Below, one piece after another: positions 53,727 through 53,919 of a stretch of 64,000 nt of DNA; positions within the stretch are counted from its first letter, which is position 1, and the number at the start of each line of letters is the position of its first letter. The notes beneath the pieces were generated by a model, which had not been told where the DNA came from, did not search any database, and saw only the letters and a program-made list of their open reading frames with translations. The position numbers and the translations under genes were made by a program. The stretch is from a virus. The stretch is taken from IMG/VR virus record IMGVR_UViG_3300011335_000809, positions 1 through 64,000 of that record, one strand, 5' to 3'.

Positions 53727-53760
53727 AAAAACCCGTCATTCTTTTTAAAAGTGACGGGTT
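53727..53760 (-). terminator. Attenuator terminator 1
   Basis: AACCCGUCA/UGACGGGUU + U-tract; 5' arm can alternatively pair with 53776-53788. Confidence 0.8.
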
Positions 53761-53787
53761 GTATATTTTTAGCAAACAACCACTCAC

Positions 53788-53841
53788 TCAACTTCCGGAT
53801 GGGAGTTGACTGGCTTGACTAGGTTGTGAAATTAAATTCAT
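53788..53841 (-). CDS. Putative leader peptide MNLISQPSQASQLPSGS (17 aa)
   Basis: Translated by hand; stop abuts antiterminator; composition matches downstream tRNAs. Confidence 0.65.
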   Translation of the reverse strand: MNLISQPSQASQLPSGS

Positions 53842-53919
53842 ATTCGTACTAATATATAGTGTTTGAAATTATAAATCAACAAAATTATTTAATAATTTTC
53901 AAATAAACTTCATTAAATT

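Follow-up and report, generated by a model that had tools for sequence, protein, structure and literature searches.

A putative leader-peptide transcription attenuator preceding a phage tRNA array

A 17-codon open reading frame (ORF), followed by mutually exclusive RNA helices and an intrinsic terminator, precedes the first of two tRNA arrays in a 64-kb stretch of DNA from a freshwater giant phage (the window). From sequence comparison and RNA folding, we consider this module likely to be a ribosome-mediated (leader-peptide) transcription attenuator, which would gate a second transcriptional input into array 1. Translation of the leader, ribosome stalling on it and regulated read-through are what we infer.

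The window covers the first 64 kb of an IMG/VR virus record that is 115,569 bp long, with a G+C content of ~31%. CheckV estimated the completeness of the record at 34%, so the genome should be of giant-phage size. No DNA or protein match to the region was found in the annotated phage collection. The positions of the features are listed in Table 1.

Table 1. Features of the leader module, the arrays and the divergent array-1 leaders. Positions are those of the window unless a locus is named.
Feature	Position	Strand	Basis
Leader promoter, TTGATT-17-TATATT within the TATATATT box	53851..53879	-	promoter scan
Leader ORF, 17 codons + TGA	53788..53841	-	ORF listing; kept in relatives
Region 1, ACAACC	53822..53827	-	MFE and RNAalifold consensus
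Hairpin A, UCAACU.CC/GG.AGUUGA, stop codon included	53788..53809	-	fold, alignment
Region 2, AGUGAGUGGUUGU, beginning on the last base of the stop codon	53776..53788	-	folds
Region 3, ACAACC-cg-UCACU (ACAACCCGUCACU), overlapping the terminator 5′ arm	53750..53762	-	2:3 folds
Intrinsic terminator, 9-bp G+C-rich stem + U run	53727..53760	-	MFE, alignment
Sigma70-type array promoter, TTGACA-16-TAAATT, TG-extended	53688..53715	-	promoter scan
Two-hairpin leader RNA before the first tRNA of array 1	53576..53672	-	conservation
tRNA array 1	51178..53547	-	ARAGORN, Rfam, relatives' arrays
Array-2 module (partly outside the window), from the 3′ part of its 25-codon leader	63887..64000	-	folds, array calls
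Array-2 terminator	63918-63887	-	
Two-hairpin leader RNA before array 2	63611-63742	-	conservation
Leader 1 of G001 (303 kb), 19 codons, before tRNA-Val	L064:6550-6609	-	
Leader 1 of G004, 23 codons, before tRNA-Val	L066:5199-5270	-	
Leader 1 of G002/G003, 26 codons, before tRNA-Val	L061:1907-1987; L063:1206-1286	-; +	

tRNA arrays, leader ORF and promoters

All tRNA genes of the window lie in two arrays, both on the minus strand. Array 1 begins with tRNA-Val at 53547 and has the order Val, Pro, Leu, Ser(UGA), Ser(GCU), Gly, an HNH ORF, Gln, Pro-like, Ala, Gly. ARAGORN and Rfam called Val, Pro, Leu, Gly(UCC), Gln, Ala and Gly(GCC), while Ser(UGA) (53278-53196), Ser(GCU) (~53106-53020) and the second Pro(UGG) (51748-51680) were below threshold in the window. 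The initial annotation had listed these three among the array tRNAs, and correctly so; in relatives, ARAGORN called Ser(tga) and Ser(gct) at the matching array positions. Over all loci, ARAGORN assigned the amino acids V, P, L, S, G, Q and A to array 1 and T, H, R, E, W, N, Y, F, K, D, I and C to array 2. The ORF inside array 1 (51952-52839, minus strand) encodes a 295-amino-acid HNH endonuclease-like protein (phrog_1271, E = 4e-10). It was the only ORF of the neighborhood with a match in PHROGs. A 317-amino-acid ORF upstream of the module ends at 53920 on the minus strand.

Several side observations concern the tRNA genes themselves. His(GUG) at 63400-63471 is a further tRNA that standard callers missed or scored low, and several of the low-scoring tRNAs (Ser(UGA), Ser(GCU), Pro(UGG), His(GUG)) have an unusual T loop (GGGCAGCAC...). 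Array spacing varies between relatives at HNH-type insertion sites. In L006, L044, L045, L049, L058 and L059, ARAGORN called a tRNA with a four-base anticodon (ctct). It sits between tRNA-His and tRNA-Arg(ACG), ~500 nt past the array-2 terminator, and the corresponding slot is empty in the window.

The leader ORF starts with the ATG at 53841-53839, encodes the peptide MNLISQPSQASQLPSGS and ends with the TGA at 53790-53788, as initially annotated. As the initial annotation had stated, each of the 13 codons after residue 4 specifies S, Q, P, A, L or G. Positions 2 and 4 are Asn and Ile, which are array-2 amino acids. No Val codon is present, though tRNA-Val heads array 1, and the UUA-Leu codon has no cognate tRNA in array 1.

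The TATATATT box lies 9 nt before the ATG in the window and 8-9 nt before it in window-type sequences. In the 18 distinct window-type sequences, the -35 element (TTGNTT) and the TATATT box were kept and the spacer was variable. In the divergent lineages described below, only a TAT(A/G/T)TATT box, 6-9 nt before the ATG, was retained. A near copy of the leader promoter precedes tRNA-Ala (51427-51394). The leader ATG has no Shine-Dalgarno sequence before it and the start is near-leaderless; because the Shine-Dalgarno sequence is missing in 32 of the 42 long ORFs of this phage, its absence is normal here.

A TAT(A/T)TATA box was found 3-9 nt 5′ of the ATG in about one third of the long ORFs, often directly past a terminator; the leader shares this start context, its own box being of the same TAT(A/T)TAT kind. 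Examples in the window lie upstream of the ORFs at 58846, 57353, 56657, 40786, 35162 and 32575. This box, together with the scarcity of Shine-Dalgarno sequences, points to 5′ leaders that are very short and to a distinct type of promoter in this phage.

A second promoter, of the sigma70 type, lies between the terminator and array 1. The initial annotation had raised it as a caveat, and it is indeed present and was kept in every lineage. Attenuators are usually the sole transcription route into their target genes; here the sigma70-type promoter intervenes. The attenuator would therefore govern a second transcriptional input, and much of the transcription of array 1 may bypass the switch through this promoter.

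Alternative structures of the leader RNA

The MFE structure of the leader RNA consists of a 1:2 helix enclosing hairpin A, plus the terminator (-32.7 kcal/mol, z = -4.3; 0 of 200 shuffled sequences were as stable), and the RNAalifold consensus of the alignment agrees with it. In the 1:2 helix, the ORF-internal ACAACC (53827-53822) pairs with GGUUGU (53781-53776), a pairing given in the initial annotation. The terminator arms are AACCCGUCA (53760-53752) and UGACGGGUU (53738-53730), with the U run extending to 53727. An A-rich linker separates region 2 from region 3.

The initial annotation had also described an antiterminator that excludes the terminator. Both structures were found in our folds: AGUGA-gu-GGUUGU/ACAACC-cg-UCACU is the MFE structure of the region 2-3 segment, at -12.4 kcal/mol versus -13.4 kcal/mol for the terminator. 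The 2:3 helix could form in 18 of 18 variants, with energies of -8.6 to -13.1 kcal/mol against -12.7 to -16.1 kcal/mol for the terminator.

Sequence variation among the variants respects these pairings. When all 4096 hexamers were ranked by the stability of 2:3 pairing, the variable hexamer past the stop codon fell in the top 0.05-25% in every variant. For example, in L039 the GGUUG is weakened to GAGUUG, which is offset by the hexamer UGACGG, the best of the variants with a rank of 0.05%. In hairpin A, a C-G pair is changed to U-A in L032 and a C.A mismatch to U-A in L039, and several of the non-synonymous changes are compensatory for the stem. In the terminator, a G-C to G-U change, with the pair retained, was seen in four sequences.

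Folding constrained by a ribosome footprint predicted two outcomes. When the A site was placed at codons 3-14, regions 2 and 3 formed 10 pairs before the 3′ arm of the terminator emerged. With the ribosome at codon 17 or the stop codon, region 2 was fully masked, no 2-3 pairs formed and the terminator folded. In the pre-terminator transcript without a ribosome, hairpin A plus the antiterminator is favored at equilibrium (-21.6 kcal/mol versus -18.8 kcal/mol for 1:2), so that termination without translation would rest on the folding order, with the 1:2 helix forming first. In all modules, region 2 lies 0-8 nt past the stop codon or inside the last codons. The trp/his-type geometry that had been proposed for this leader was thus recovered with three states, and it is conserved in relatives of divergent sequence.

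A separate feature of the linker between region 2 and the terminator is a boxA-like TGCTCTTAAAG (compare the lambda nut and rrn antiterminators) in L007, L013, L016, L020, L029 and L031. The window carries TGCTAAAAA at the same place.

Several studies of freshwater and lake samples include RNA libraries with contigs 95-100% identical to the region. RNA runs with a word share of 0.11-0.15 were left out, except X10 (0.14). Two contigs from two freshwater studies (X1 record 1, X2 record 7) span the leader, the terminator, the promoter and tRNA-Val. They lend weak support to read-through, with which they are compatible, although they may also stem from DNA carry-over. The runs are kept as contigs, from which transcript starts, ends, strand and level are not readable, so depth cannot rank the parts and uncovered parts (53948-54270 and others) carry no meaning. 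Contigs ending in adapter sequence, at 53805 (X2) and 53696 (X10), are single observations. A 1-nt deletion at 53793 (GGAAGU to GGAGU) was seen in X1 and X3, from two freshwater studies. It makes hairpin A perfect and shifts the stop codon by four bases, giving a leader of 18 codons.

Conservation and composition of the leaders

Exact-pattern scans of IMG/VR with the leader-RNA core, a degenerate ORF and the terminator recovered the module at 28 loci on related giant-phage contigs, representing 18 distinct sequences. The conserved unit comprises the promoter box, the ATG, 17 codons, region 2, the terminator, the sigma70 promoter and array 1. At 28 of 28 loci the array that follows reads Val, Pro, Leu, (Ser), (Ser), Gly, Gln, Ala, Gly; array content is invariant within the window-type lineage, whose members are not independent. 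The leader ORF was conserved in these relatives in nine versions, each of 17 codons, with ~7 synonymous and ~7 non-synonymous codon changes. The gene upstream differs (at least five kinds), and the conserved block starts at the promoter of the leader.

If the terminator merely insulated the tRNA promoter, the short ORF would be a product of chance or the 3′ remnant of a longer gene. A terminator followed by a promoter is a common layout, and in two loci (L018:1-250 and L019:8992-9192, minus strand) the last 14 codons of the leader end a 66-amino-acid ORF in frame, with the leader promoter and ATG gone. The first 44 residues of this fusion ORF match part of G000:93695-93823 (E = 5e-6), another gene of this phage, which marks the fusion as a derived state. 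Of the 18 variants, 17 retain the ATG, the ORF length and the promoter, as do three further lineages, and the composition statistics given below oppose chance. We therefore regard insulation as highly improbable. Three simpler candidates were set aside. A chance ORF before an ordinary terminator had been argued from the missing Shine-Dalgarno sequence and was dropped, as the unit is conserved and such an absence is normal here. A terminator merely ending the upstream operon is opposed by a conserved block that starts at the leader promoter behind a variable upstream gene. A relic of the 3′ end of a longer gene was dropped because the 66-amino-acid fusion is derived.

Array-1 leaders of more distant records were reached through array 2 (Table 1), giving four lineages together with the window type. 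Their peptides and terminator stems differ from those of the window, and CAACCTAGT, in region 1, is the sole nucleotide block common to all four. In each divergent leader, a segment 1-8 nt past the stop codon is complementary to the 5′ arm of its own terminator (-9.2 to -16.2 kcal/mol). As each region 2 fits its own terminator, region 2 and the terminator stem covary across the lineages.

This covariation bears on a further explanation, in which the unit is a stand-alone small gene for a ~118-nt small RNA or a 17-amino-acid micropeptide that sits near the tRNA promoter by descent only. Such a gene would account for the unit's own promoter and efficient-looking terminator, for an ORF core that is almost invariant in nucleotides within the window-type lineage, and for compensatory changes in hairpin A that alter the peptide. 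Terminated leader RNAs and peptides acting in trans are also known (rnTrpL/peTrpL; PMC6614838, PMC7298713). It leaves unexplained the fit of region 2 to the terminator stem of each lineage and the way the peptides diverge yet stay within the amino acid set of the array; moreover, among the recovered loci the module was never found apart from array 1. We judge this explanation rather improbable. A small-RNA seed, considered from the near-invariant nucleotides, was likewise rejected as leaving the composition unexplained, although it could be a second role.

The composition of the leaders follows the array downstream. The number of leader-1 residues within the array-1 amino acid set was 14 of 16 for the window, 15 of 18 for G001, 21 of 22 for G004 and 21-22 of 25 for G002/G003. 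The window leader covers six of the seven array-1 amino acids, and the G001, G004 and G002/G003 leaders cover 7/7. Under an i.i.d. proteome null for in-set count plus coverage, P was 1e-4 to <1e-6. A null of ~105,000 sliding windows from 423 phage proteins allows for low-complexity tracts; the fractions of these real-protein windows that did as well were 7e-4, 1.8e-4, 0 and 1.8e-4. The 115-kb record has 559 natural short ORFs, of which only two, the leader included, reach 14/16 residues from the array-1 set. A scan of the same record for box, short ORF and terminator returned the two leaders and three other matches (8, 8 and 31 codons). None of the three heads a tRNA array or is composition-matched; the 31-codon one lies inside array 2.

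Codon choice gave a different result. By synonymous resampling, the fit of codons to the array anticodons was not significant in 7 of 7 modules (P = 0.1-0.86). With strict wobble, 10 of the 16 codons of the window leader and 5 of 9 array tRNA species were matched (P = 0.55-0.86). A match of 13/16 codons was reached only if U34 family-box tRNAs read all four codons, which they might, as the family-box tRNAs all have U34. Since synonymous codons are not tuned beyond codon usage, the match is at the level of amino acid (tRNA) identity. The initial annotation had described the attenuator as tuned to the tRNAs of the array; this stands for amino acid identity, in four lineages and in array 2, and fails for synonymous codon choice.

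A module of the same layout precedes array 2, with a TATATATT box, an ORF, a terminator, a TTGACG promoter, a leader RNA and the tRNAs. Its leader ORF is at 64026-63949 (record and window coordinates are the same; L004:450-527, minus strand), with the ATG 26 nt beyond the window. The last codons of this leader would pair with the whole 5′ arm of its terminator (-13 to -22 kcal/mol); when the leader is untranslated, they would pair with an upstream ORF segment instead. Within 24 residues it contains all 12 of the 12 array-2 amino acids, and no other short ORF of the record covers 12/12. Three array-2 leaders of divergent sequence cover 11-12 of the 12 (G001 leader, 11/12). For leader 2, P was 2e-4 to 5e-6 under the i.i.d. 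null (1.4e-3 for the G001 leader), and the fractions of real-protein windows were 2.7e-4, 1e-5 and 1.9e-5 (2e-3 for the G001 leader). The G004 array-2 block adds tRNA-Leu(CAA/UAA) and tRNA-Met, and its leader 2 (L066:14570-14641, minus strand) has a UUG Leu codon that is absent from the window-type leader 2. This codon is a single hint of locus-specific co-variation.

These data bear on whether the leader senses particular tRNAs. A generic attenuator would report overall translation capacity, and the amino acid content of its leader would have no sensing role. Codons that are not tuned to the array anticodons would be expected then, as would the single structural outcome of any stall in codons 3-14. 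Against it, the four leader-1 and four leader-2 peptides diverge in sequence and keep the composition of their own array, and the amino acid sets of the two leaders are complementary within one genome. We consider a generic attenuator unlikely.

The first tRNA of each array in the window is preceded by another conserved element, a two-hairpin leader RNA, whose 24-mer core was found at 17 IMG/VR loci. Its core is invariant, its stems show compensatory changes in the copy before array 2 (UGGGU/ACCCA versus UAGGU/ACCUA) and its apical loop is variable among relatives. Rfam holds no family for the leader or for the two-hairpin RNA. Distant relatives (L061:1600-1700, minus strand; L063:1520-1610, plus strand; L066; L067) carry another conserved leader RNA before their arrays, which starts with CCGUAGAGGCG and ends with CCAACGAUAGGU. 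Array 1 of G004 has no leader RNA, and its tRNA-Val starts ~25 nt past the promoter.

Proposed mechanism and known systems

In the attenuation model, the TATATATT promoter would start transcription only a few nucleotides 5′ of the AUG, and the leader would be translated as a near-leaderless message. With fast decoding, the ribosome would reach codon 17 or the stop codon and cover region 2; the terminator would then form and a ~118-nt transcript would end at ~53727. A ribosome stalled anywhere within codons 3-14, which specify Leu, Ile, Ser, Gln, Pro and Ala, would cover region 1 and leave region 2 free to pair with the 5′ arm of the terminator, so that RNA polymerase would read through into array 1. 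Without translation, regions 1 and 2 would pair first and transcription would terminate. A shortage of usable tRNAs could come from starvation, from loss of host tRNAs or from anticodon nucleases. The sigma70-type promoter behind the terminator would provide an attenuator-independent input, perhaps an early one. Because the leader spells the amino acids of the downstream tRNAs, the circuit would act as a negative feedback on the usable tRNAs of those identities.

We lean, with somewhat better than even confidence, toward a tRNA homeostat that works per block and serves as a counter-defense sensor. Each tRNA operon would have its own codon-inventory leader, and slow decoding, caused by host tRNA decay, anticodon-nuclease defense or starvation, would top up that block, the response being block by block. 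If true, leader-peptide attenuation would extend to tRNA genes and to leaders of a new logic, which list many amino acids and not a run of one, and phages would regulate their tRNA arrays by feedback from translation. Phage tRNAs would then be linked, in a way open to direct test, to host defenses that target tRNAs. The modules would also help to delimit the tRNA operons of uncultured giant phages and could serve as compact natural sensors for the usable amounts of defined tRNAs.

Enterobacteria have multivalent attenuators, such as the thr leader with Thr and Ile codons and the ilvGMEDA leader with Leu, Val and Ile codons, in addition to trpL, hisL, pheL and leuL. The phage module resembles them in its promoter-proximal short ORF, its 1:2, 2:3 and 3:4 regions with an intrinsic terminator, the predicted masking of region 2 by a terminating ribosome, putative regulatory codons cognate to the downstream supply, and the proposed sensing of more than one amino acid. 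It differs from them in targeting tRNAs and not biosynthetic enzymes, and in a leader that inventories 6-7 amino acids (12 in the sister module) and not runs of one to three. It is also phage-encoded and near-leaderless, lacks a Shine-Dalgarno sequence, and has an independent promoter before its target.

In the E. coli pheM leader/pheST attenuator, the level of charged tRNA controls a component of the translation apparatus. The phage module would likewise be a case of leader-peptide attenuation; in pheST the target is a synthetase and Phe alone is sensed, whereas the phage module would target tRNAs. The T-box riboswitch is similar in that tRNA status sets the choice between terminator and antiterminator. 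It differs in that no translation is involved: a specifier codon and the T-box sequence bind the uncharged tRNA directly. An Rfam E-value scan of 53400-54000 found no T-box, only tRNAs and chance matches (E > 1).

In a full-text literature search, no tRNA genes under leader-peptide attenuation came to light, whether of phages or of other origin, and no such control was found described for the tRNA clusters of T4, T5 and jumbo phages. Those clusters are thought to replace depleted or cleaved host tRNAs (PMC12619734). As in the window, homing endonuclease ORFs lie among their tRNA genes.

Among published systems, the closest is the trn operon of Anabaena sp. PCC 7120, a long tRNA array that is induced under translational stress (PMC8421152, PMC10272220). 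As proposed here for the phage, an accessory tRNA array is switched on by impaired translation. The control differs, since the repressor TrcR acts on the promoter by binding direct repeats (PMC8421152, PMC10272220), and the words attenuation, leader peptide and terminator are absent from the 2021 paper on this operon. The mechanism proposed here is classical attenuation; what is new is its target, the tRNA genes, and the inventory leader.
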